Virus genome (UHGV): UHGV-1375320
Strand: one strand, 5' to 3'
DNA length: 37,336 nucleotides
DNA from: a virus
Part shown: piece by piece, positions 5,957 to 37,129 of the stretch
How the letters are laid out: the number at the start of each line of letters is the position of its first letter
Position numbering within the stretch: position 1 is the first letter of the stretch
Notes under the pieces: generated by a model
Databases searched by the model: none
Told to the model about the DNA's origin: nothing
The model's input: only the letters and a program-made list of their open reading frames with translations
Made by a program: the position numbers and the translations under genes

Positions 5957-6385
5957 ATGAGTGGTAAATATGAAAAAATGAAAAAACTTATCCAAGATAT
6001 AGAGGGGGTAGGATTTGAATGTGAAGCTGGATATTTAAGTGGTCTTGTTGCTTGGCAAGAATTAAAAAAAGAGATTGAAGAGCTTGGGGCTATGGAAAGA
6101 CTAGAACCTCGTTGTGTAGATATAAGACTAAAAAATCATATAGAAAGAATGGAGGTGGAATTACAAGAACTAGGAGATAAAATTGAAAGATTAGCTATTT
6201 TCATAGAAAGAGAAAAAATAGAGCCTAAGTTTACAGATGAAGAGCAAAGAATTAAATTAGTATTGCAAAAAGAATATATGATTAATTATGCTGGTATTTT
6301 AAAACAAAGAATATATTGCGATACTTTAAAACTTAATAAAGACCCAGAAGTGGAAAATCATATAGAATTATTACAAAGAAAGTAA
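5957..6385 (+). CDS. Hypothetical protein (coiled-coil rich)
   Basis: 142 aa ORF with a GGAGG RBS. Followed by a CTAGAGC/GCTCTAG hairpin at 6410-6428. Confidence 0.4.
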   Translation: MSGKYEKMKKLIQDIEGVGFECEAGYLSGLVAWQELKKEIEELGAMERLEPRCVDIRLKNHIERMEVELQELGDKIERLAIFIEREKIEPKFTDEEQRIKLVLQKEYMINYAGILKQRIYCDTLKLNKDPEVENHIELLQRK

Positions 6386-6487
6386 CTTTTCTAAATAACT
6401 TACACACAAAGCTAGAGCTTATGCTCTAGTTAAAGCATTTAAAGGCTTGAATGTTTTAATTAGATTATAAGCAAAAAGGGGGTAACA

Positions 6488-6778
6488 ATGATAAATTTAG
6501 AAAGCTATAACTACATAGTAGAATCAATCAAAGAAATAGTAGTTATAAATGGAGAAGAGTATAAAAGAATGGAATTTAAAGAACCTTTTATAACTATGTA
6601 TGAGGCAGCTAGATATTTTTTTAGAATGAAACCTAAAGCTAAAAATCCTATAAAAATATTAGAAAGAGGAGCAGAGGACTGGAAAGAAATTAGTATTGAA
6701 AATTTATTAAAAAAGATAAAGAAAAATAAAACAGAAAAAGCTAGAAGAGCTTTAAAAGGAGTTGATGAAAAATGGTAG
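6488..6778 (+). CDS. Hypothetical protein
   Basis: 96 aa ORF with a GGGGG RBS, packed in a co-directional array. Confidence 0.4.
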   Translation: MINLESYNYIVESIKEIVVINGEEYKRMEFKEPFITMYEAARYFFRMKPKAKNPIKILERGAEDWKEISIENLLKKIKKNKTEKARRALKGVDEKW

Positions 6779-10010: not shown

Positions 10011-10247
10011 AATGAAAACCTGGAATAAAAAGAAAAAACCAAAACATCATAGCAAAGTAAAATATAAAGTTTATCCAAAAAGAAAAGGAATAGTAAGTAC
10101 AGTTAGAGAGTGCAGATGTAAAAAATTTAAAAATTGTTATCTTGTACCAAAACAATTTTTTCTAATTATTTTAACTACTAATAGGAAATCTAAAAAATAT
10201 AAAAAAGTATCAAAACAAACCTGTAAAAAAAAGTATTAAAAGTACAT

Positions 10248-10277
10248 TGTTTTTTATCTCTAAAAATAGTATAATTA
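10248..10277 (+). promoter_or_regulatory. Putative sigma70 promoter for the serine recombinase gene
   Basis: TTGTTT (10248-10253), 17 bp, TATAAT (10271-10276), about 50 nt upstream of the recombinase ATG. It lies inside a 320-bp AT-rich non-coding leader. Confidence 0.4.
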
Positions 10278-10329
10278 TGGTATTAAGTGAAACGAACGAC
10301 AGAATAAATACTAAAAGGAGAGATAAAAG

Positions 10330-11025
10330 ATGATATATGGTTATTGCAGAGTATCTACAAAAAAACAAAATATTTTAAGACAGGTGGAAAATATCATAAA
10401 GATATATTCAACTGCTAAAGTATTTCAAGAAGCATATACAGGAACTACAACAGATAGAAAAGAATGGAGTAAGCTAAAAAAAATGGTTAAACCCGGAGAT
10501 ACAATTATATTTGATTCTGTTAGTAGAATGAGTAGAAATGCAGAAGAGGGAATAAAAGAATATTTTAATTTTGTAGAAAGAGATATTGAACTTATATTTT
10601 TAAAAGAGGGATATATCAATACAGCCCTTTATAAAAAAGCTTTAGAGAATAAAATAGATTCAACAGGAAATAAAATAGCTGATATATACATAGACGCAAC
10701 CAATGAAGTATTGAAGATATTAGCTCAAGAACAAATTAAAATAGCATTTGACCAGGCTGAAAAGGAAGTATTAGACCTTAGAGAAAGAACAAAAGAGGGA
10801 CTAAGAGTTACCAAAGCTAAAGGAACTGTATTAGGTAGAAAACAAGGAGATACTTATACTACCAAGAAAGAAAAGGAGATGAGAGAGAAAATAAAAAAAC
10901 TAGCTAAAGATTTTGGAGGAAATCTTAAAGATATAGAAGTCTTTACACTGCTAGGAATAACTAAGAATACATATTACAAGTATAAGAAAAATATTATATT
11001 AGAGGAGGCACAAAATGAGAAATAA
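10330..11025 (+). CDS. Small serine recombinase (resolvase/invertase family)
   Basis: 231 aa. MIYGYCRVSTKKQ carries the catalytic Ser in the canonical G(Y)xRVST context. The size is typical (~185-230 aa). The C-terminal LLGITKNTYYKYKK is an HTH. It has its own promoter and a long upstream leader. Confidence 0.8.
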   Translation: MIYGYCRVSTKKQNILRQVENIIKIYSTAKVFQEAYTGTTTDRKEWSKLKKMVKPGDTIIFDSVSRMSRNAEEGIKEYFNFVERDIELIFLKEGYINTALYKKALENKIDSTGNKIADIYIDATNEVLKILAQEQIKIAFDQAEKEVLDLRERTKEGLRVTKAKGTVLGRKQGDTYTTKKEKEMREKIKKLAKDFGGNLKDIEVFTLLGITKNTYYKYKKNIILEEAQNEK

Positions 11026-23024: not shown

Positions 23025-24404
23025 GTGTTTAAGCAAATGTTAAATTTTAAAAAAGAGTATTTTAAGTTAGAAGAGAATAGACAACAATATACTACTAGCT
23101 TTTCAGACTTAATGACAAGTTGTGAAGTTTACGGAAAAAAACAAAATCCTATAACTAGCACAGCTTTTATATTCCTTATACCTAAAGATTATTACACATA
23201 CAATGCTGGAAACATTGATTTTACTAACTACCCAGATGGCATATGGAATGATTACACAGATATTAAGATAGTTAAGTCTGAACCTTATTTTGATTTAGAT
23301 TTTACTTTTAGTAGTACAGGAGATATTACACCAGAAAATCTAAATAATATGTTTACTAAAATAAAAGCTGCAATACTTGGAACAGAAAAAGAAATTATAA
23401 AATCTCAATTATTTGTAGATAGTGGAATACCAAAACAATTAGGTTTACCAGATTTACCAAAAGGTTCTATCTGGTATATGTCAGATGATGGGATAGCTAC
23501 TTATCCTGTAACTACACTATTTGAGAAATATCAAGAGTTGCTCAATAAGATTTATGAAGATACAAAAAAAATATTACTTGAAGATTTGGATAATAGAGTA
23601 AAAGAGCTAGTTATTCAATTAGAAAAAGATTTAAAAGAAATTATTGATAATTATCTTAAAACAGATAGTTATTTAAAATTAGATAAATATACACAAGAAA
23701 AAATAGAAGAAGCAGAAAAAGAAATCCAAGATTATATAGACTATCATATGCAAGATTTAAAAGGAGAAAGAGGGTACTCAATAGCAAGTGTTGGTTTTAA
23801 TAAAGAATTACCAGAAGGAAACGTCTATACAGTCTACCGTGAAGACGGAGAAATTATAGGAGAATTATTAGCACGAAGAGGTCCTCAAGGTATTCAAGGC
23901 AATGATGGACCAGAAGGACCGAAAGGAGAAAGAGGAGAAAGAGGATTCAAAGGAGATAAAGGGGACCAAGGAGAAAGAGGGGAAAATGGACCTCAAGGTA
24001 TTCAAGGAGAGCAAGGAATACAAGGAGAAGTTGGACCTCAAGGTCCTCAAGGAATAACAGGTCCTCAAGGTATTCAAGGAATACAAGGAGAACAAGGTAT
24101 TCAAGGAGAAAGAGGACTTCAAGGACTAAAAGGCGAACAAGGCGTTCAAGGAATACAAGGAGAACAAGGACCTAAGGGAGAGCAGGGAGATATCGGACCT
24201 CAAGGTCCTCAAGGAATACAAGGTCCTAAAGGAGATAAGGGAGATAAAGGAGATAATGGAACTGCTGTAATTACTCCTATAAATAGTCAGTACATATTCC
24301 AAATAGAAGATGGAAACTTAGTTGTGTATTATAACGAGAATGATACTCAACCAAATTTTTCAATAGATGAAGATGGAAATTTAGTATTAGAAATTTTAGA
24401 ATAA
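23025..24404 (+). CDS. Collagen-like repeat protein, putative tail fibre
   Basis: 459 aa. About 125 residues of perfect G-X-Y triplets ([19 protein letters not shown]...[10 protein letters not shown]). It lies downstream of terL and next to a second collagen-like fibre gene. Confidence 0.65.
23878..24262 (+). repeat. Collagen G-X-Y coding repeat tract (fibre gene 1)
   Basis: Iterated 9-nt-periodic units ggtcctcaaggtattcaagga and ggagaacaaggaatacaagga. Several 20-40 nt stretches are shared verbatim with fibre gene 2. Confidence 0.85.
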
Positions 24405-24417
24405 GGAGGTTTTAATT

Positions 24418-25530
24418 ATGCCAAAATTAATTATAGGTAATGTTGTAGGTCCTCAAGGTCCTAAAGGAGAACAAGGAGATATCGGACCTCAAGGTCCTAA
24501 AGGAGAACAAGGAATACAAGGGGAACAAGGTATTCAAGGTTTACCTGGTGCAAAAGGAGAACAAGGAATACAAGGTCCTCAAGGTCCTAAAGGAGATACT
24601 GGAGAGCAGGGTATTCAAGGTCCTAAAGGAGATAAGGGAGATACTGGACCACAAGGTCCTCGAGGTCCTCAAGGTATTCAAGGACCTAAGGGAGACAAAG
24701 GGGAACAAGGTATAACTGGAAATACTGGTCCTAAAGGTCCTAAAGGAGATACTGGAGAGCAGGGTATTCAAGGTCCTAAAGGAGCTGATGGAGTAGGAGT
24801 AAAAAGTATAACATTTAAGAATACTAATGAAGATGGTGGAAATGTTTATACTGTGACTTTAACTAATGGTAGCACATATGATTTTACTGCCCCTAGAGGT
24901 CAACAAGGGATACCAGGACAAAGCGGTCAACCTGGGACTACCGATTATGAAAAATTAATAAACAAACCAGATGTATATACTAAAACTGAAACTAATAATT
25001 TATTAGATGGTAAATTAGGTAAAGAAGATAAAGCGAAGAGTGCTACAACTGCTGATAGTGCTGGTGCTTGTACAGGGAACTCTGCTACTGCTACAAAATT
25101 ACAAACTGCTAGAACTATCAACGGAGTTAGTTATGATGGTAGTGCCGATATTACAATAGCTGATAATACAAAACTTCCAAAATCCGGTGGTACTATTAAT
25201 GGAAACTTAACAGTAATAGGAGCTATTGTTTCAAACGGAGAAGTTACGGCTTATTCAGATAGAAGATTAAAAACTGATATAACAAAGATAACTAATGCTC
25301 TTAAAAAAGTAAATCAAATCAATGGGTACACATTCACTATGTTAGGTACAGGGCAAAGACAAGCTGGAGTTATAGCTCAAGAAATCGAGAAAGTATTACC
25401 AGAAGTTGTAGTTCAAAATGAGGATAACGGGTATCTAACAGTAGCATATGGAAATATAGTAGCTTTATTAATAGAAGCTATTAAAGAGTTGAGTAATGAA
25501 GTTAAAGAATTAAAAGGGGGTAGGGTATAA
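24418..25530 (+). CDS. Collagen-like tail fibre with C-terminal intramolecular chaperone (peptidase S74) domain
   Basis: 370 aa. G-X-Y tract at residues ~10-125. C-terminal [12 protein letters not shown]...[20 protein letters not shown] matches the S74 auto-cleaving chaperone signature (SD.RLK.NI ... G.IAQE....PE) found on phage fibres and endosialidases. Confidence 0.7.
24448..24795 (+). repeat. Collagen G-X-Y coding repeat tract (fibre gene 2)
   Basis: Same repeat family as 23878-24262. For example, ggagaacaaggagatatcggacctcaaggtcct occurs in both genes. Confidence 0.85.
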
Positions 25531-28296: not shown

Positions 28297-28970
28297 TAGC
28301 TCAACCCCTTTATCTTTTCTTTTAGTTCAGCCTTAACAGTTTTCAATTCTTTCAACTCTTCCTCTAATTTTCTAATTTTCGCCTCTACCTCCGACAGTCT
28401 GGATACCAGCTTATCTTTTTCAGATTCCTCTACTATCTCGGCATCTTCTATTTCGAGAGCTCTCGAAATAGCTTTTTTTATCCCTTGAGCTGTTCTTATT
28501 TCACCATTTACCACTCTTGCTATAACATCACTTGGTGCTTTTTTGTTTGTTATTTGCTTAATCTCTGCGTCTGATAAAGTCTGTATAATTTTACTTTCTG
28601 GATATTCTAAAGATAGTTTATATCTTCCTCTTAGTAATGACACTTGGTCTTTATTGAATCCTAAAGCTTGGTACCATTCCATATAACTTTGAGAATTTTC
28701 AGAGTATCTATCAAAAAGCCCTCTAGCTTCATCTAACATTCTACCTGTTTCTATTGCTAATTTCCCAACTTCTTTTTTATTTGTAATTATTTTTTTCTCT
28801 ATATTTATCAGTTCTCTTACATCATCTTGGGAAAAGTTTTCCAATACTGAATAATCAAATAAGAGTTCAGTTGTTACTAATTCTTTAGTGGTTTGTGTTT
28901 CTTGTAGTGTTGCTGGTTTAGTTATATTTCTAATACCTAAACTACTTCTTTTTATTGTTGGTTTTCCCAT
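28296..28970 (-). CDS. Putative partition adaptor/centromere-binding protein (ParB analogue, non-canonical)
   Basis: 224 aa, immediately downstream of parA and overlapping it by 19 nt. Helical N-terminal half plus a C-terminal coiled coil (KLVSRLSEVEAKIRKLEEELKELK). No ParB GERRxRA motif, so the family is unassigned. Confidence 0.3.
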   Translation of the reverse strand: MGKPTIKRSSLGIRNITKPATLQETQTTKELVTTELLFDYSVLENFSQDDVRELINIEKKIITNKKEVGKLAIETGRMLDEARGLFDRYSENSQSYMEWYQALGFNKDQVSLLRGRYKLSLEYPESKIIQTLSDAEIKQITNKKAPSDVIARVVNGEIRTAQGIKKAISRALEIEDAEIVEESEKDKLVSRLSEVEAKIRKLEEELKELKTVKAELKEKIKGLS

Positions 28971-29761
28971 ATCTCTAACAACTCCTTAGTAAGATTTTTA
29001 AAGTCTTTAGCTCCATTACTTGTAGGGCTATATTGTCCTATAAAATATCCATCTCTAGCACAATATTTTAATTTTCCATTATCTCTAATTTGAGTTTTTA
29101 AAATATTAGGATATCCCTCTCTAATTTCTTCTATGTCTTTTAAAATATCTTTATCAAGTGGCACCTGGTTAAAATATCCAAGGTGTATAAATGGAGTGCT
29201 TAAATTTTCTTTTAAAGCTTCTATAAATTGCAACATTATATTTAACCCTTGAACACTATATATATGTGGTATTATTGGAGTTAAAACATAATTGCTAAGA
29301 GATAACACAGCTCTTTCTAAAGAATCTATACTAGGTCTACAATCAAATATTACATAGTCATAATCTAATTTTTCAAGCTCTGATTTTAGATTGAAATATA
29401 TCATTTCTTGGTCCCATTTATCCATTGTTAAATCTAGGTTTCTTAGGTCATAACTACCTTTGATAAAATCTAAAATATATCTTCCTTTTTCTACTTCATT
29501 AATACCTGTATCTTTATTTTCTACTATTTTTAGTTCATGTATTTGTATTATATTATTTGCTAAAGACTTTTCTTTTAAAGCTTTGAATAAGTCTTTTTCT
29601 TCATCATCAAATATAAAACTTTGTGTTAAGTTCTGCTGATAGTCACAATCTACCAGCAATATTTTTTTATTAAAATTAAGTGCTAACATTCCAGCGACTT
29701 CCCTTGCCCCTGTTGTTTTTCCTGTTCCACCCTTTTGATTTATAAATGATACTACTTTCAT
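28952..29761 (-). CDS. parA: ParA/Soj-family partition ATPase
   Basis: 269 aa. The deviant Walker A KGGTGKTT is at the N-terminus (MKVVSFINQKGGTGKTTGA). Walker A' (LLVDCDYQ) and Walker B (VIFDCRP) contexts are present. Strong AAGGGGG RBS. Confidence 0.8.
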   Translation of the reverse strand: MKVVSFINQKGGTGKTTGAREVAGMLALNFNKKILLVDCDYQQNLTQSFIFDDEEKDLFKALKEKSLANNIIQIHELKIVENKDTGINEVEKGRYILDFIKGSYDLRNLDLTMDKWDQEMIYFNLKSELEKLDYDYVIFDCRPSIDSLERAVLSLSNYVLTPIIPHIYSVQGLNIMLQFIEALKENLSTPFIHLGYFNQVPLDKDILKDIEEIREGYPNILKTQIRDNGKLKYCARDGYFIGQYSPTSNGAKDFKNLTKELLEIWENQQ

Positions 29762-30717
29762 TTTACCCCCTTAATATGATTAAATATGTAACTAAAACTT
29801 CTAATCTCAATATTGATATTTTTGTAACATGAAATCAAGCCTTTTTTCAATTGCTCATATGGAAAGTTCTCCATAAGTTTTCCAACATTTTCAAGTGTTA
29901 AATAAGGTTCTATAAACCTATTTTTTCTAGCTTTTTCTAAAGCTTTTTCCAAATCTTCTAACTGTTCAAATGTTAATGATTCAACTTTTTCAGCCTCTTT
30001 TATTTCTGTTTCAGTTCCATCTTTATCTAGCACTTCCATTTGCTCTATATCCCAACTCAAAATTATTTTAGTAATAAATTTTCCTGTTCTTACTCTTTCC
30101 ATTTTTAGATTTTTTATATTAGTTTTCTCTGCTAGTTCTTCTGCAGCTTTTTTTATTATCTTAGTTTCTACATCTACCCATCTATATTGAGTATTTAAAA
30201 TTTTTAAAAATTCATCTGGTGCAAATTCCCAAGACTTTAAATTTTTATAACTCATAACTATTTGATAGAGCCTCTTGGAATGTCTACCCTTTAAACCTGT
30301 AAATTCTAGTAATTCATGTCTTGTAAAATTATTGCTTAAATTAAAAAAAAGTGGGATAAAATCTTTTTTTAATTCAAATATAATTTCTGTTTTATCTTCT
30401 GTATACATCAAAGTTTCAAATATGTGTTTATGCAGCTTGTACCCATCTTTTTTTATTTGAACACTTGTATTAAAAATGTTTTTCAAAGCCTCTTCTATTC
30501 TTTTGGTACTTACATTTCCTTGAACCATTTTTTTTATGACTTTAGGGTCTAAAAACAAATTTACATTCTCATTTGTATTTACATTCATATGGTCTTTAAT
30601 TTTTTTTCTAGCAGCATAAGCTAAAGTTACAATTAAATCAAGTTCATAACTTCCAAACTCATTGAAGCTGGTAGCAAAATCTTTTGAGTATTCTACAACT
30701 TCATTTTTAATTTCCAT
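29758..30717 (-). CDS. Rep_3-family (iteron-binding) plasmid replication initiator
   Basis: 319 aa. LKGRHSKRLYQIVMSYKN and FLKILNTQYRWVDVETKIIKKAAEELAEKTNI match the winged-helix Rep_3 signatures (S.Y..RLYELL ; F...L.......+..+.A..EIN..T.I). Iterons lie directly upstream, and its stop overlaps parA. Confidence 0.6.
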   Translation of the reverse strand: MEIKNEVVEYSKDFATSFNEFGSYELDLIVTLAYAARKKIKDHMNVNTNENVNLFLDPKVIKKMVQGNVSTKRIEEALKNIFNTSVQIKKDGYKLHKHIFETLMYTEDKTEIIFELKKDFIPLFFNLSNNFTRHELLEFTGLKGRHSKRLYQIVMSYKNLKSWEFAPDEFLKILNTQYRWVDVETKIIKKAAEELAEKTNIKNLKMERVRTGKFITKIILSWDIEQMEVLDKDGTETEIKEAEKVESLTFEQLEDLEKALEKARKNRFIEPYLTLENVGKLMENFPYEQLKKGLISCYKNINIEIRSFSYIFNHIKGVK

Positions 30718-30806: not shown

Positions 30807-30943
30807 CTGACAAAACTTCACACTATTGACAAAACTTCACACTATTCTGACAAAACTTCACAGTATAGTCTGACAAAACTTCACACTATACCCCTCTATT
30901 TCTGACAAAACTTCACACTATTCTGACAAAACTTCACAGTATC
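30807..30943. repeat. Iteron array (six direct repeats of ~21 bp), putative oriV/Rep binding sites
   Basis: CTGACAAAACTTCACACTATT at 30807, 30828, 30848 (ACAGTAT variant), 30871, 30903 and 30924, spaced 20-23 bp with one 32-bp gap. A seventh diverged copy lies at 31056-31075 (TGACAAAACTTCGTGGTATT). The array is flanked by an AT-rich TAAACT-repeat stretch at 30975-31045. Confidence 0.7.
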
Positions 30944-31198: not shown

Positions 31199-31224
31199 TG
31201 GCAGGAATAAACCTGCCATTTTTA
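31199..31224. terminator. Intrinsic terminator at the end of the recombination operon
   Basis: TGGCAGG / CCTGCCA stem, loop AATAAA, T-run on the + side. It overlaps the SSAP stop codon. Confidence 0.5.
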
Positions 31225-32181
31225 TTTACTTGTTAGTAACTCTTTTAACTCTTCATATTCTTTATTATTCAATCTTTCAAGTAATACTTTATTATATTTT
31301 CTTTTACACTCCATAAGTAAAATACCTTGTTTATCTAATTTTAATAACTCTTGGATTTGCTCTTCTGTAATATCACTTACTGGAGTAACTTCTTTTAAAT
31401 CAGATATTTTTAATTGCCCCTCTTTAATACCATTATAAGCTAATTTTAAATTAACTAGATGGCTAGAAGTCCAGCTCTCATATGGACAGTTTAAAAAATT
31501 TTCTAGTTCTTGCTTAGAAAGATTTAATTTATTTTCCAAGAAAATTAATATCTGTTCTTTAGCTTGTGAAATATCCTCTATGCTTTCAATCTCTCTTTCC
31601 ATAGTTGTTTTTATCTCTTCTATGCAGGAATCTAAAATATAATTAGGTATTAAATTCAAGATACAACCTCTTAAAAATCTAGCTCCATAACTTGCTTTCA
31701 TCTCGTATTGGTCCCTCATATCTGTTAAAACATAAGCACCTTTTTTTGTATATCTTTTCATAGATACATCAAATTGCTTTGTAGTTTTGATATTGTTTTC
31801 AACGTCCCAGGCATAAGCTAACATTGTAGATTTTCCATCATCTGTATCTAATTCTATTACCGAGTATTGAATATTACCCCAAGCTCTTGCAACTGCTTCA
31901 GCAAATCTTATAGTTAAACCTTGCACAACTTCTCCACCTCTAGGAAATGAATATAAGGCAGTATCAGCAAAATTCTTTCTTTTACATAGCTCTAGTATTT
32001 TATTTTCTGCTTTTATTTCATCTCTAGGAAATTGTTTTGCTAAAAATACTGCTGCCTTTACTTCCTCAAGTAATCTACTTTCAATCCCCATTTCCATTTG
32101 TTCTGCCTTTATCTCTTTAACAGGCTTCATCTCTGAAACCTGTTTCTTTCCCATCATATTGTTTTTAGCTATTACTTCCAT
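31222..32181 (-). CDS. RecT/Red-beta-family single-strand annealing protein
   Basis: 319 aa, immediately downstream of a YqaJ exonuclease, which is the classic exo+SSAP pair. The core LYSFPRGGEVVQGLTIRFAEAVARAWGNIQYSVIELDTDDGKSTMLAYAWDVENN fits the RecT-family annealing domain. Confidence 0.55.
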   Translation of the reverse strand: MEVIAKNNMMGKKQVSEMKPVKEIKAEQMEMGIESRLLEEVKAAVFLAKQFPRDEIKAENKILELCKRKNFADTALYSFPRGGEVVQGLTIRFAEAVARAWGNIQYSVIELDTDDGKSTMLAYAWDVENNIKTTKQFDVSMKRYTKKGAYVLTDMRDQYEMKASYGARFLRGCILNLIPNYILDSCIEEIKTTMEREIESIEDISQAKEQILIFLENKLNLSKQELENFLNCPYESWTSSHLVNLKLAYNGIKEGQLKISDLKEVTPVSDITEEQIQELLKLDKQGILLMECKRKYNKVLLERLNNKEYEELKELLTSK

Positions 32182-32182
32182 A

Positions 32183-33142
32183 TTATCCTCCTATTGTTAA
32201 AGCTCCACGTTTATTTAATTTTGCTATAAGTCCGTTTCCAAGTTCCATAAGTGTAACACCTTTTTCTAGCATTTCTTTTTTTATCATAAGTTTTATACTA
32301 TCAGCTTTTGGTTTTGCTTTCTCTTCAATTTCTTTTAATTCTAGCATTGAGTTAAGTAGCTCATCAGCTAGGTTAAGTGCTAGTTCTGACTTTATTTTTT
32401 CAGTAGTTTCTTTTGGAATCTCATAAGCCATTCCAAGTGCTTCAGCTTCTGCTTTATTTCCTATCAATTCTGGTTCTATATTATTTTGGAATTTCTTCCA
32501 AAACTCTTTAGCTAAAGAAAACATATAGTCTATGAACTCTTGGTCTTTAACTACTGTAAAAACTTTGGTAAATCTGTTGTTTATCCAACCAAGTATATAC
32601 ATTTTTTCTTTTCCTGTAACTTCTAAAATCCATTGGCATTGACTATAATATTCATCTGGTACAGTGTCCCCACTCCATTTATCCCATTGGAAACTATCTC
32701 CAGTTTTACACTCCATAGGGAACCAACCCTCATCAGTTGAAACCCAGCCATCTGGGGTACAAGTTGCGAAATCATATTCTTTATGCTTTATAACTTCATC
32801 TCCTGGAATAACTTCATAAACTTTAAATTTTGCTTTTTCTGGAAATTTAGCTCTTATAAAATCTTCTGCAAAATGTCCAAACTCTAATTTATCTTGAGTT
32901 ATTTCACTGAATTGAGGTTCGTATTCTCCTTTTAAACTTTTATACAATAACCAAGGACTTGAATATTCTGGTTTTTTATCTATCCAACCTTTTCTATATC
33001 TGTCAACTTCTACAAGATTATGGATAGAAGAGGCACCGATTACACGGTGCTTTAACCATTCCCCTCTATTTGTAGTATCTCCCTTGAATACTGTTATTCC
33101 ATTATGCTTTGGTATGTCATAAATACTCATTTGATTTACCAT
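32183..33142 (-). CDS. YqaJ-type (lambda Exo-like, PD-(D/E)xK) recombination exonuclease
   Basis: 319 aa. GEWLKHRVIGASSIHNLV matches the YqaJ N-terminal 'EW...R.G.ITAS' motif. Conserved acidic/Lys residues are spaced downstream (FGHFAEDFI, CTPDGW, ECKTGD). Confidence 0.65.
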   Translation of the reverse strand: MVNQMSIYDIPKHNGITVFKGDTTNRGEWLKHRVIGASSIHNLVEVDRYRKGWIDKKPEYSSPWLLYKSLKGEYEPQFSEITQDKLEFGHFAEDFIRAKFPEKAKFKVYEVIPGDEVIKHKEYDFATCTPDGWVSTDEGWFPMECKTGDSFQWDKWSGDTVPDEYYSQCQWILEVTGKEKMYILGWINNRFTKVFTVVKDQEFIDYMFSLAKEFWKKFQNNIEPELIGNKAEAEALGMAYEIPKETTEKIKSELALNLADELLNSMLELKEIEEKAKPKADSIKLMIKKEMLEKGVTLMELGNGLIAKLNKRGALTIGG

Positions 33143-33231
33143 ACTAGAACCCCCTCTTCAATAAGATTTTCAATAAAAATTTGTTCTGCTAGTGCTTCTA
33201 GCTCCTCATCTGTCATTAAATATTCTGGCAT
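33136..33231 (-). CDS. Possible 31-aa leader peptide coupled to the exonuclease gene
   Basis: ATG at 33231 with an AAAGGGAG RBS, placed 18 nt after the 46-bp palindromic element. MPEYLMTDEELEALAEQIFIENLIEEGVLVW ends inside the exonuclease start. The longer ORF-track version (33321) would read through the conserved non-coding element. Confidence 0.25.
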   Translation of the reverse strand: MPEYLMTDEELEALAEQIFIENLIEEGVLVW

Positions 33232-33249
33232 AATACCAACTCCCTTTTT

Positions 33250-33295
33250 AGTTTTTAACAAGTCCCCCAAGGCTCTTGGGGAACCTATAAAAACT
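33250..33295 (-). promoter_or_regulatory. 46-bp GC-cored palindromic intercistronic element, copy 2
   Basis: 43/46 identical to copy 1; only the central 3 nt differ (GCT vs TTC). It sits 4 nt after the upstream stop and 18 nt before the next ATG. Confidence 0.5.
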
Positions 33296-33298
33296 AAA

Positions 33299-33547
33299 TT
33301 ATTTATTAACAATGTTCTCAAGCATTTTGAAAAATTTTTCTAACTCCTGCTCTATATCTTCATTCATTATTCTAATTTCATTAAATTTTAAATTAATATC
33401 CCAAGTTATAGCTTTCTCTCCTACATATCCAGCAACTCTAGTTTTTCTAAATATTCCACTAAAGAAAACTATATTGTTTTTTATCTCCCAAGCTAAATTT
33501 TTAATACTGTATTTTTCTTTTAAATTCTCCATCATTACTGCTAACAT
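33299..33547 (-). CDS. Hypothetical protein
   Basis: 82 aa early-operon ORF. Its stop lies 4 nt before palindromic element copy 2. Confidence 0.35.
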   Translation of the reverse strand: MLAVMMENLKEKYSIKNLAWEIKNNIVFFSGIFRKTRVAGYVGEKAITWDINLKFNEIRIMNEDIEQELEKFFKMLENIVNK

Positions 33548-33614
33548 TCTAATTCCCCCTACATTTTGCTATATTTAATTTTGAATTTTAATATATGTTT
33601 TATCCAAGCTATCA

Positions 33615-33890
33615 TTAATATCTAACCCCTTGGACTGCCCAGTAAGCTGCTTCTCTGTCTTGCTCTTCTCTTTTTTTATCTTGGAAAGCTTCTTCAACTT
33701 CTTTTTCCCATTCTTCTAAAAACTCCATCATACTATCCATATCCACCTGGAACTTAACTTCTTTTTTACCAAGTCCAGAAAATACCATAAAATCTCCTGT
33801 CTTTGAGTTATAATTGTAAGAATCAATTAGTCCATCATCTTGTAATTGTTGCATTGTTTCAAATCCTTCTAATAATTCTTTATCTAACAT
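33615..33890 (-). CDS. Hypothetical acidic protein
   Basis: 91 aa, with ATGTTAG start/stop overlap with the upstream small gene. Confidence 0.35.
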   Translation of the reverse strand: MLDKELLEGFETMQQLQDDGLIDSYNYNSKTGDFMVFSGLGKKEVKFQVDMDSMMEFLEEWEKEVEEAFQDKKREEQDREAAYWAVQGVRY

Positions 33891-34063
33891 AGTTTTCCCT
33901 CCTCTTGATTATTAAGTGCTAAATTTGCTATCGCTTCAGATACTGTTAAACCATATCCATGAAACTCTCCAGCATTTACTATATAAAATTTTTTAAATCT
34001 TCTTACTGTAAGAACTCCCCATTTCTCATTGATATATTTTAAGAACATCACATCTTGTGACAT
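33884..34063 (-). CDS. Hypothetical small protein (59 aa), not in supplied ORF track
   Basis: ATG at 34063 preceded by an AAAGGGGGGTGG RBS. Translates MSQDVMFLKYINEKWGVLTVRRFKKFYIVNAGEFHGYGLTVSEAIANLALNNQEEGKLC. It sits 17 nt downstream of palindromic element copy 1. Confidence 0.3.
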   Translation of the reverse strand: MSQDVMFLKYINEKWGVLTVRRFKKFYIVNAGEFHGYGLTVSEAIANLALNNQEEGKLC

Positions 34064-34080
34064 ATTGCCACCCCCCTTTA

Positions 34081-34126
34081 AGTTTTTAACAAGTCCCCCA
34101 AGTTCCTTGGGGAACCTATAAAAACT
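34081..34126 (-). promoter_or_regulatory. 46-bp GC-cored palindromic intercistronic element, copy 1
   Basis: AGTTTTTAACAAGTCCCCCAAG-TTC-CTTGGGGAACCTATAAAAACT, with an 8-bp outer stem (AGTTTTTA/TAAAAACT) and a 7-bp inner stem (CCCCAAG/CTTGGGG). It sits 4 nt after the J-domain gene stop and 17 nt before the next ATG. Confidence 0.5.
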
Positions 34127-34129
34127 TAA

Positions 34130-34576
34130 CTATGCTATCGCTTGTAGGTTGCTTCCTTGTACTCTTTGCCAACCATATTTTTGTTTTAACTCTTCATAAT
34201 CTCCCTTGAATGTTCCTTTTCCTTTTTTCTCTCCAAAGTACCATTTTTTTCTTTTAGCACTCCATCTAAAACCAAGTTCTTTTAACTGTTCCTTGTATAA
34301 GAAAGTATTACCAGATACCCATATCCAAGAGCCTACAACATCAATCTCTAAACCATGGAAATGTATTATTTTCTTTAGTATCTCCATAACCTCTGGGGCT
34401 ATCTCTTCCCCTGCTTCCCTTGCTTGTTGTTTAAATCCCTCAAGTTGTATTCTTTCATACTCTGCCATCATCTCTTTGAAGTTCTCTTCGTTTCCACCAT
34501 GGTCTGGGTGTAATCTCTTACATAATTCTCTATATTGTTTTTTTAAATCCTCGTTACTGTTAAAGTATTTATACAT
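34130..34576 (-). CDS. J-domain (DnaJ N-terminal domain) protein
   Basis: 148 aa. KQYRELCKRLHPDHGGNEENFKEMMAEYERI contains the invariant HPD tripeptide in the canonical helix II-III context of J domains. It is the first gene of the leftward early operon. Confidence 0.6.
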   Translation of the reverse strand: MYKYFNSNEDLKKQYRELCKRLHPDHGGNEENFKEMMAEYERIQLEGFKQQAREAGEEIAPEVMEILKKIIHFHGLEIDVVGSWIWVSGNTFLYKEQLKELGFRWSAKRKKWYFGEKKGKGTFKGDYEELKQKYGWQRVQGSNLQAIA

Positions 34577-34631
34577 ATTACCAACTCCTTATATTTTCTA
34601 CTTGCTTTTATGTTTTTTGTGGTTTATAATG

Positions 34632-34732
34632 CAAGTAAATAACTTGTATATTTGACTATATAATACAAGTGATTTACTTGCTTGTCAAGTAAAAATTTTT
34701 ATTTTATAATAAAATTACAAGTTAATTAGTTG
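34632..34732. promoter_or_regulatory. Divergent early/repressor promoters with CAAGT-N5-ACTTG operator repeats (genetic switch)
   Basis: O1 CAAGTAAATAACTTG (34632-46), O2 CAAGTGATTTACTTG (34666-80), a half-site CAAGT at 34686-90, and O4 CAAGTTAATTAGTTG (34718-32, one mismatch). Rightward promoter: TTGTCA (34682-87), 17 bp, TATAAT (34705-10). Leftward promoter: TTGACA (revcomp of 34683-88), 17 bp, TATTAT (revcomp of 34660-65), with O2 in its spacer. Confidence 0.5.
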
Positions 34733-34759: not shown

Positions 34760-35416
34760 ATGGAAAAAAAGACAGGAGAAACTTTAAAAAATATTAGAAA
34801 AAAATATAACATTACAGGAGAAAAGATGGCAGAAATTTTAGGGTGTAGCACTCAATTTATTTATGCAATAGAAAAAAATAAAAATAAATTTCCTGTAAAA
34901 AAATTAGAATTGATAAAAAATATTGTATCTGAAATCGATTATTTCGATTTAATAGAAGCAATAAAATTTGATACTGAACCTGCAAGCCTTAAAAACGAAG
35001 TTTTAAAAATCCAAAGTATAGAAGAGATAAAACAAAAGAAGATACCTTTTTATCCAGATATTGAAGCTTCAGCAGGGTATGGAAGATTTAATGATAGTGA
35101 AATTGTAGAGTTCTTAGAAGTTCCAGAAGATTTAGCAAGACCAGGAAATATAGCTATAAGAGTTGCTGGAGATTCTATGGAACCAGAGATTAAAGACGGA
35201 GATACTATTGTAATAGATACAAATTGTATAGAATGTATTTTAAATAAAATAATAGTTGTTAATTATCAAGGGGCAGTATATTTAAAAAAATATGTTGAAG
35301 AAAATGGAAAAATATTTTTAAAAAGTATAAATCCATATTACCCTAAAATTAGAATAGGAAACAGAGAAGAACTTAGAGTTATTGGGAAGTTAAAAAGTGT
35401 TATGAGGTATTATTAG
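34760..35416 (+). CDS. CI/LexA-like phage repressor (XRE HTH + peptidase S24)
   Basis: 218 aa. N-terminal HTH LKNIRKKYNITGEKMAEILGCSTQFIYAIEKNK. The C-terminal S24 domain has Ser in AGDSMEP and Lys in GAVYLKKY. Confidence 0.8.
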   Translation: MEKKTGETLKNIRKKYNITGEKMAEILGCSTQFIYAIEKNKNKFPVKKLELIKNIVSEIDYFDLIEAIKFDTEPASLKNEVLKIQSIEEIKQKKIPFYPDIEASAGYGRFNDSEIVEFLEVPEDLARPGNIAIRVAGDSMEPEIKDGDTIVIDTNCIECILNKIIVVNYQGAVYLKKYVEENGKIFLKSINPYYPKIRIGNREELRVIGKLKSVMRYY

Positions 35417-36824: not shown

Positions 36825-36907
36825 ACTTTCAACTCCTTTCTTTGATGTGTGTTAATCAAATTATATAACAATTTTGAAAGTATGTTAATAAATATTTTTT
36901 TACTTCA

Positions 36908-36933
36908 AAACGGACATAAAAATGTCCGTTTTA
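36908..36933. terminator. Perfect 11-bp hairpin (AAAACGGACAT / ATGTCCGTTTT), probable bidirectional terminator
   Basis: AAAACGGACAT-aaaa-ATGTCCGTTTT, with an A-run on the 5' side and T's on the 3' side. Confidence 0.45.
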
Positions 36934-37129
36934 GAGGTATAAAAGTAAGAAAAAATCTTCTGAAACTAGCATAAATTCTATGTTTTAGAAAATTGAAACT
37001 CAGCTAAATATATAATAAAGCTCCCTTGTATATCCTGCAAGGGTTTAACTATAAAAAAATAAAATATACCTGATTTTCTTAGAGATAGTTTTAAATTATT
37101 AAAGCTATCTTTTAGAAAATTAAAAGGGG

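Follow-up and report, generated by a model that had tools for sequence, protein, structure and literature searches.

A repeated sense-strand hairpin between early genes of a Fusobacterium phage-plasmid: a candidate mRNA processing site and a point of cassette exchange

In the early transcripts of bacteriophage T7 (sites R0.3 to R1.3) and of SP82 and SPO1, RNase III sites are located between the cistrons, and processing at these sites yields mRNAs that are separately stable and translatable. Intergenic motifs of another kind, the promoter-early stem-loop (PeSL) cassettes of T4-type phages and the linkers of modular evolution, flank small early genes and aid shuffling. The present analysis concerns the virus genome UHGV-1375320, a stretch of 37,336 nucleotides (the window), whose early operon contains two near-identical copies, E1 and E2, of a hairpin-forming element located between a stop codon and the next Shine–Dalgarno (SD) sequence. 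The element resembles the T7 and SP82 sites in comprising related hairpins repeated in the sense strand between early cistrons, with about two helical turns and no terminator function. The features by which an RNase III site is recognized are found here, namely an intercistronic position in sense, a helix of about two turns and selection at the level of the RNA, cleavage itself being predicted. The element differs from the T7 sites in having a nearly perfect helix lacking the typical internal loop, in showing no similarity of sequence or in Rfam, and in belonging to a temperate phage-plasmid of Fusobacterium. Hairpins for processing between cistrons are a classical feature of T7 and SP82, and the family described here is apparently new for Fusobacterium phages. 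With the PeSL cassettes it shares the property of a repeated intergenic motif that provides homology for the shuffling or deletion of cassettes; a PeSL includes an early promoter, however, and none is evident in the element.

The ESAS and SAS elements of Cluster K mycobacteriophages are imperfect inverted repeats upstream of gene starts, and their function is not known (PMC3203893). Like these, the element has a variable spacer and a single orientation, accompanies a subset of non-structural genes, is conserved beside unrelated genes and is absent from host genomes as far as these were scanned with the core. In ESAS the repeats are 17 bp long and linked to a 13-bp SAS, in high-GC phages with 11–19 SAS copies per genome (PMC3203893), whereas the present element has 1–4 copies per genome and a covarying helix of 23 base pairs (bp), with no SAS-like motif beyond the SD. 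The Correia elements of Neisseria (CREE/NEMIS) form an inverted-repeat hairpin that binds RNase III and affects the expression of the adjacent gene (PMC2649163). They too are short, repeated inverted-repeat elements, and are co-transcribed with neighbouring genes. CREE are, however, mobile elements of 70–157 bp with more than 100 chromosomal copies that may carry promoters and IHF sites (PMC2649163); the present element is 46–58 nucleotides (nt) long, is restricted to phages as far as tested and gives no sign of transposition. The findings do not overturn current understanding. The RNA biology of Fusobacterium is only now being mapped, and the family provides a compact cis-element, supported by covariation, in a medically relevant host, which could also find use in Fusobacterium constructs, to insulate one gene from the next.

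The two copies, and the sequences that lead from them into the next open reading frame (ORF, with lengths in amino acids, aa), are located as follows.

33250 to 33295, minus strand: hairpin copy E1, 46 nt, with a helix that reaches 33247–33298 and contains three G·U pairs and one bulged U.
34081 to 34126, minus strand: hairpin copy E2, 46 nt, with a helix that reaches 34078–34129, stems identical to those of E1 and the apex GAA.
33229 to 33249, minus strand: A-rich linker and Shine–Dalgarno sequence AAAAAGGGAG, with the ATG of the 31-aa ORF that follows E1 (from the sequence).
34061 to 34080, minus strand: A-rich linker and Shine–Dalgarno sequence AAAGGGGGGUGG, with the ATG of the 59-aa ORF that follows E2 (from the sequence).

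In the mRNA sense E1 reads AGUUUUUAUAGGUUCCCCAAG-AGC-CUUGGGGGACUUGUUAAAAACU. A preliminary description of this DNA had proposed two near-identical palindromes, and these are real; E1 and E2 are identical at 43 of 46 positions, and the differences are confined to the 3-nt apex (GCT versus TTC on the plus strand, AGC versus GAA in the mRNA sense), as had been stated. The 37.3-kb window contains the GC core CCCCAAGNNNCTTGGGG at exactly two places, where 0.01 occurrences are expected, and at least two occurrences were found in none of 100 shuffled sequences. A repeat finder lengthens the repeat to 64 nt, with 88% identity. The reported placement also holds when read on the coding (minus) strand. 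Each copy begins at the fourth nucleotide past a stop codon (33299–33301 for E1, and 34130–34132, the stop codon of the J-protein gene, for E2), leaving a spacer of 3 nt. The next ATG lies 18 nt after E1 (at 33231) and 17 nt after E2 (at 34063), with the SD in between. Neither copy has a U-tract in either direction, and the gene order is that originally given, with the J-protein gene upstream of E2, and the 31-aa ORF, a YqaJ gene and a gene in the RecT position after E1.

The 148-aa J protein and a 79-aa protein of Fusobacterium varium prophages are unrelated, and both end in Ile-Ala-stop before the first hairpin of the operon. These ends are encoded by ATAGC(A/T)TA(G/A), at 34121–34132 (minus strand) in the window and at 6001–6012 (minus strand) in the related locus L105, with equivalents in L005 and L077. 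As unrelated upstream genes have this end in common, the conserved unit seems to extend into the last codons of the upstream gene. A coding function for the element itself was considered, as a 61-aa ORF (33136–33321, minus strand) and one gene call in L024 traverse E1. It was rejected because the loops of family members vary by 1–5 nt, which shifts the frame, and because the substitutions in the stems are compensatory. A promoter within the element was also rejected, the candidate being just a weak 9/12 match whose −10 hexamer overlaps the next start codon; the scan for promoter-like sites gave fewer than were found in shuffled sequences.

The sense RNA of each copy folds as a continuous helix of 23–24 bp, in which three pairs are G·U and a single U is bulged. 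The hairpin fold had been correctly recognized in the preliminary description, but the conserved internal loop ascribed to it is formed on the plus strand only; in the transcribed sense its place is taken by U·G, G·U and U·G pairs. For the 53-nt core the folding energy is −27 kcal/mol, and it reaches −36 kcal/mol in longer segments (E1 −27 to −32, E2 −27 to −36); E1 and E2 are the most stable 60-nt folds of the window (−28.5 kcal/mol). The antisense RNA, corresponding to the plus strand, folds at −18.9 kcal/mol with an internal loop, and has A·C mismatches where the sense strand has G·U. The element thus fails as a DNA operator, the two strands being inequivalent in energy and in number of G·U pairs (three versus zero) and the inner stems being replaced among relatives. 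An operator-like palindrome at 34622–34683 provides an internal control; it is strand-symmetric (−20.5 versus −20.1 kcal/mol) with zero G·U pairs. This inverted repeat (GCAAGTAAATCACTTGTAT...ATACAAGTTATTTACTTGC) separates the divergent promoters of the early operon and the repressor gene, and is probably a CI/Cro-type operator. E1 and E2 also failed as intrinsic terminators. Each hairpin is followed by AAAAAGGGAG or AAAGGGGGG and not by a U-tract, and the terminator scan flagged neither strand; in the absence of a U-tract the element is not an intrinsic terminator.

A search of other phage genomes with the core, as proposed in the preliminary description, revealed the element in related genomes (viral contigs), with constant orientation, the same position from stop codon to SD, and differing neighbour genes. 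One copy in L072 has a diverged inner stem with two compensatory pair changes. A pattern representing the outer frame, TTTTTATAGGTT and ACTTNTTAAAAA separated by 14–24 free bases, was scanned over metagenome and viral contigs, and the matches were folded. Those that fold have the same anatomy with quite different inner stems; chance matches are unfolded, at about −5 kcal/mol, whereas real members fold at −17 kcal/mol or better. The pattern scans and a covariance model together give 29 distinct members in Fusobacterium phage-plasmids and prophages. Every copy examined is organized as a stop codon, the hairpin, an A-rich linker, the SD and an ATG, on the strand of the flanking ORFs. Across the 29 members the helix is 19–25 bp in length (median 23) despite the variable inner stems, with loops of 3 to 8 nt. 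In all 29 the sense strand folds more stably, with mean energies of −22.0 kcal/mol for the sense and −12.5 kcal/mol for the antisense strand.

For the analysis of covariation 28 distinct sequences were aligned using MAFFT and the helix was written onto the columns. Pairing is present in 98.9% of the alignment cells. Double compensatory changes occur in nine of the 23 pairs (42 cells), with 22 further pair types. None of 500 column shuffles reached any of five covariation measures, and sliding the 3′ partner by one column lowers pairing to 63–66%. The same helix is predicted unaided by RNAalifold. In the whole alignment G·U occupies 54 cells and A·C none; the 21 distinct inner stems comprise 148 Watson–Crick pairs, 24 G·U pairs, no A·C and eight other mismatches. 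Since columns fixed by the search pattern cannot vary, the evidence of covariation comes from the free columns only.

Applied to the window, the covariance model hits exactly E1 and E2, with 75.6 and 76.1 bits on the minus strand versus 46.3 and 47.8 bits on the plus strand; it also recovers extra members whose outer frame departs from the search pattern. By exact protein look-ups some of the member loci are prophages of F. varium ATCC 27725 and F. ulcerans. The contexts checked are early recombination and replication operons, where the element is found before YqaJ and RecT genes, after a Rad52-type gene and before a DnaD-like gene. In L005 the element is identical at 46 of 46 positions, with flanking genes that are 66–81% identical. 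Rfam gave no match at gathering scores, and a scan by E-value gave nothing better than E = 0.5 and generic hairpins only. Neither the element nor the 7.5-kb region gave real matches when compared by BLAST with deposited phages and PLSDB plasmids; the sole blastn match among deposited phages, Clostridium phage phiCT453B, is not closely related and has no comparable element. Genome contigs scanned with the window core gave eight chance matches in unrelated organisms. L073 (J protein 40% identical, 42% GC, P22-type portal) has short GC hairpins of another kind only. Among 38 viral loci with distant relatives of the J protein, most are phages of ~54% GC whose intergenic structures are unrelated to the element.

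The preliminary description had offered both a structured RNA and a DNA palindrome bound by a dimeric protein. The former is supported, and the latter contradicted, by the covariation, the one-sided occurrence of G·U pairs and the stability of the sense strand. Wobble pairing on one side together with the wholesale replacement of stems indicates that selection has acted on the RNA structure of the sense strand, and not on a dimeric DNA-binding site. The element is very probably a cis-acting structure of the sense-strand mRNA.

Other hairpins are found in the same niche. In L066 (44 kb, 28% GC, J protein 47% identical) the early-gene gaps of 61–100 nt contain hairpins of roughly 19–22 bp whose sequence is unrelated. 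These hairpins contain G·U pairs in the sense strand, have no U-tract and are followed by an A-rich linker and SD, and the only canonical terminator of L066 is at the end of the operon. In the window a long sense-only hairpin, again of unrelated sequence, is located at 6417–6473 on the plus strand in the late operon, within the gap between the ORFs 5957–6385 and 6488–6778, where it follows a crAss001_48-like gene downstream of the capsid gene. It comprises 25 bp with four G·U pairs, folds at −26.5 kcal/mol versus −13.2 kcal/mol for the antisense, and is followed by AAAAAGGGGG and an ATG. Canonical terminators in the window and in the loci of relatives have U-tracts and 11–17 bp.

Recombination has occurred at the copies. 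Homology to genomes carrying Gp157 and Sak ends at 33232, just before the ATG that follows E1, and resumes at 31227 in the terminator, which is the right-hand mosaic boundary. Further breaks of homology are at 33303 and at 34061–34068 (with L001 and L003); like 33232, these positions are edges of the element. In otherwise near-identical genomes the same slot contains either the 31-aa ORF, YqaJ and a 319-aa protein in the RecT position, or an alternative module comprising a 45-aa ORF, Gp157, an extra copy of the hairpin and Sak (window 31222–33231 versus L017 7346–8684). Cassette orders are combinatorial among the genomes, with one to four copies in each. Two alleles of Rep3 (319 and 374 aa) are also present, and assort independently of the recombination module. 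L007 corresponds to L002 minus a 1.03-kb cassette between two copies, and the cassette located between E2 and E1 in the window is absent from L007. The flanks of L007 and L002 are 99.8% and 99.98% identical, and the two alignments overlap on a 63-nt element. The surviving copy in L007 combines the 5′ flank of copy 1 with the 3′ arm of copy 2, and its hybrid nature explains the lone A·A mismatch in the covariation table. Judged from the sequences compared, the conserved element doubles as a homology patch for the modular exchange of cassettes. Such exchange is plausible because recombinases of the short-homology, single-strand annealing type are encoded directly downstream, and these phage enzymes would take part in it. 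The role in crossover, like the membership of a wider family in Fusobacterium phages, goes beyond the preliminary description. With alternative recombinase modules and a cassette deletion that left a hybrid element among the evidence, the locus presents a clean natural case of a conserved functional intergenic sequence turned into a crossover point in modular phage evolution.

By analogy with the T7 and SP82 sites, the helix may serve as operon punctuation for mRNA processing or stability, most likely cut by the RNase III of the host; we assign this reading a probability of about one half. We infer that the candidate leftward early promoter (~34660–34688) transcribes through both copies, placing the hairpins in the polycistronic early mRNA. 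There the helix of ~23 bp, two turns of A-form, would start 3 nt past the stop codon and end a few nucleotides before the strong SD. Host RNase III would cut the helix, or the helix would at least bound exonucleolytic decay. The early transcript would be split into segments whose stability and translation are independent of the neighbouring cistron, and each downstream piece would begin near its own ribosome-binding site. As a by-product, the near-identity over 46–64 nt gives crossover points for homologous recombination, by which cassettes are swapped or deleted. The idealized substrate of Escherichia coli RNase III is 22 bp in length, corresponding to two helical turns (PMC3867540; substrate rules are also given in PMC6212723), and in F. 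nucleatum RNase III is among the proteins pulled down with small RNAs (PMC11039985). The helix length of the family is held at 19–25 bp, near the 22-bp ideal, while stems and loops vary, which favours an RNase III site. The reading is further supported by the barriers and terminators of the same loci, for which 11–17 bp suffice.

A number of points weigh against processing by RNase III. The argument for cutting is one of helix length and analogy, and the yardstick of length is that of the E. coli enzyme. The outer frame of the family was fixed by the search pattern, so its conservation is partly by construction. So stable a helix could be purely an uncleaved barrier to decay, and a double-strand cut would strip the upstream fragment of a protective 3′ hairpin, the benefit of which to the phage is not obvious. 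Lastly, the 67-nt gap at 33548–33614 (minus strand) between the genes of 91 and 82 aa is unstructured (z = +0.5), showing that a hairpin is not required at every gene junction. This gap equals the hairpin-bearing gaps in length, and could be a decayed copy or a coincidence.

If the helix is not cut it might still act as a decay barrier and insulator, blocking PNPase and RNase R (3′-to-5′) and RNase J (5′-to-3′) at the cistron boundaries and preventing base-pairing between the next ribosome-binding site and the coding sequence before it, and in this way setting the stability and translation rate of each cistron. We consider this possible, if only tentatively. A very stable, sense-specific helix exactly between stop codon and SD would be suited to the task, and the same architecture is built from unrelated sequences in L066 and at 6417–6473. 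Intercistronic hairpins can indeed stabilize segments of mRNA, as REP does in malEFG; against this, exonuclease barriers and terminators usually need only ~5–17 bp. The three nucleases have been reported for F. nucleatum (PMC11039985), but a helix of 19–25 bp is long enough for RNase III to be expected to cut it (PMC3867540), so that a barrier that is to stay intact should avoid such a length. The uncleaved barrier is the main rival to processing by RNase III. A strong hairpin within the operon and upstream of the recombination genes might also be taken for a weak terminator or attenuator that lowers the transcription of the distal early genes. This is the least probable of the readings weighed here, as there is no U-tract on either strand, the terminator scan left the element unflagged, and the genuine terminators of the window and its relatives have U-tracts. 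A switch between SD and anti-SD (UUCCCC versus GGGGGA) was rejected, the inner stems of other members and of the L066 hairpins not being SD-like by inspection.

An RNA operator, by which a sequence-specific RNA-binding protein of phage or host represses or activates translation of the gene just downstream, would account for a recurrent mid-helix motif, in which AUAGGU pairs with ACUUAU, one pair is G·U and a bulged U lies close by; members recovered through the covariance model, and not through the fixed pattern, have the motif as well. Conservation is also higher in the element than in the flanking genes, and only a few nucleotides separate its end from the SD, as would suit an operator. Nevertheless we judge it improbable. 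L066 has hairpins of unrelated sequence at the same positions, and Pfam finds no candidate RNA-binding protein among the early genes. The genes after the copies (YqaJ, Sak, DnaD-like, small ORFs) are mutually unrelated, so a shared translational regulon is not obvious. Yet more doubtful is a function at the level of the DNA, either as the palindrome of a dimeric regulator or as a recombination site (attC-like, MITE-like or that of a small serine recombinase) that builds arrays of cassettes. The element is palindromic, is present at every mosaic junction and flanks the cassette that was precisely lost, and a gene of the resolvase family is located at 10330–11025. Recognition of double-stranded DNA would, however, produce neither the 54 G·U pairs with no A·C nor the sense-specific stability, and the inner stems turn over by compensatory change with loops of 3 to 8 nt. 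A mismatch in the central nucleotides blocks exchange by serine recombinases, and E1 and E2 differ in their central 3 nt. The overlap of the L007 alignments over the full 63 nt is what homologous recombination predicts. Neither arm, on inspection, matches the attC consensus R″/R′ (RYYYAAC / GTTRRRY), and no tyrosine recombinase, whether integrase or other, and no Y1 transposase was seen among the ORFs scanned. Target-site duplications are likewise absent by inspection; the flanks TTTAG...CTAAA and TTAAG...CTTAA prolong the palindrome and are not direct repeats. The metagenome matches that fold all have the arrangement of stop codon, hairpin and SD, and those checked lie in phage early operons; host genomes were scanned with the core only. 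A mimic of CRISPR repeats finds no support, in that Rfam gave no CRISPR-DR family at E up to 10, no array-like locus with multiple hits was seen in the genome contigs, and the Fusobacterium phages sampled differ from one another in inner stems and lengths.

A broader proposal is that the element is a dedicated portable linker for gene cassettes of temperate Fusobacterium phages, uniting stop context, hairpin and strong ribosome-binding site in one unit co-selected for recombination. It is unlikely, if less so than an RNA operator. As part of the proposal a specific factor might recognize the processing or stability hairpin through the AUAGGU/ACUUAU mid-helix, an idea that is just as speculative. 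In the same conjectural vein, the short-homology recombinases RecT, Sak and Rad52-like proteins might plug promoterless early cassettes in and out. Such a linker would be functionally analogous to the attC sites of integrons or to the PeSLs of T4, but would operate through homologous recombination and RNA function.

The surroundings of the two copies, and the other genes mentioned above, are as follows.

34130 to 34576, minus strand: J-domain protein of 148 aa, the first early gene (Pfam DnaJ below the gathering score; weak DUF5710).
33299 to 34063, minus strand: cassette of three small genes (59, 91 and 82 aa) between E2 and E1 (ORFs; no Pfam match).
31222 to 33231, minus strand: recombination module after E1, comprising the 31-aa ORF, the YqaJ exonuclease (32183–33142; Pfam YqaJ) and the 319-aa protein in the RecT position (31222–32181).
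34660 to 34688, minus strand: candidate early promoter TTGACA-17-TATTAT (consensus match only), which would transcribe both hairpins in sense.
34760 to 35416, divergent from the candidate early promoter: CI-like repressor gene with helix-turn-helix and S24 peptidase.
31199 to 31218, minus strand: canonical intrinsic terminator closing the early operon, with a U-tract and flagged by the terminator scan.
29758 to 30717, minus strand: gene of a Rep3-family initiator.
28952 to 29761, minus strand: gene of a ParA-type ATPase.
10330 to 11025, plus strand: small serine recombinase of 231 aa (Pfam Resolvase) among the late genes.

With a candidate promoter upstream of the J gene and a terminator after the last gene, E1 and E2 lie inside one leftward early operon. 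Homologues of the J protein with 30–36% identity are encoded by the first early gene in many unrelated phages of ~54% GC from the same gut collection. The window itself, ~37.3 kb in length, looks complete and encodes a T7-type portal; counterparts of 36.8–37.7 kb are found in many assemblies from the human gut. Nothing among deposited phages or PLSDB plasmids resembles it as a whole. A protein of F. gonidiaformans belongs to the cluster of its portal, which identifies the host as Fusobacterium; for the Rep3 protein the closest relatives are those of plasmids of Fusobacterium, Cetobacterium and Leptotrichia. Directly upstream of the Rep3 gene, at 30808–30942, there are four to five direct repeats TGACAAAACTTCACAC(T/A)(A/G)T(A)TTC, which from their arrangement are a plasmid-type iteron origin. 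No integrase is present among the window ORFs scanned, and this, together with Rep3, ParA, the iterons and the many gut contigs of ~37.3 kb, points to the lifestyle of a phage-plasmid. The gene of the serine recombinase is preceded by ~320 nt of AT-rich non-coding sequence (10011–10329), and may constitute a dimer-resolution or inversion system of the phage-plasmid.

Two more strong hairpins are located near the right end of the window on the plus strand, among small ORFs beyond the immunity genes, at 36889–36948 (−25.0 kcal/mol) and 37069–37128 (−23.1 kcal/mol). The former resembles a bidirectional terminator (AAAACGGACAT...ATGTCCGTTTT). Between 23877 and 24793 long stretches of 9-nt periodic repeats encode collagen-like Gly-X-Y tracts, in the adjacent late genes 23025–24404 and 24418–25530 (plus strand), which presumably encode tail fibres.

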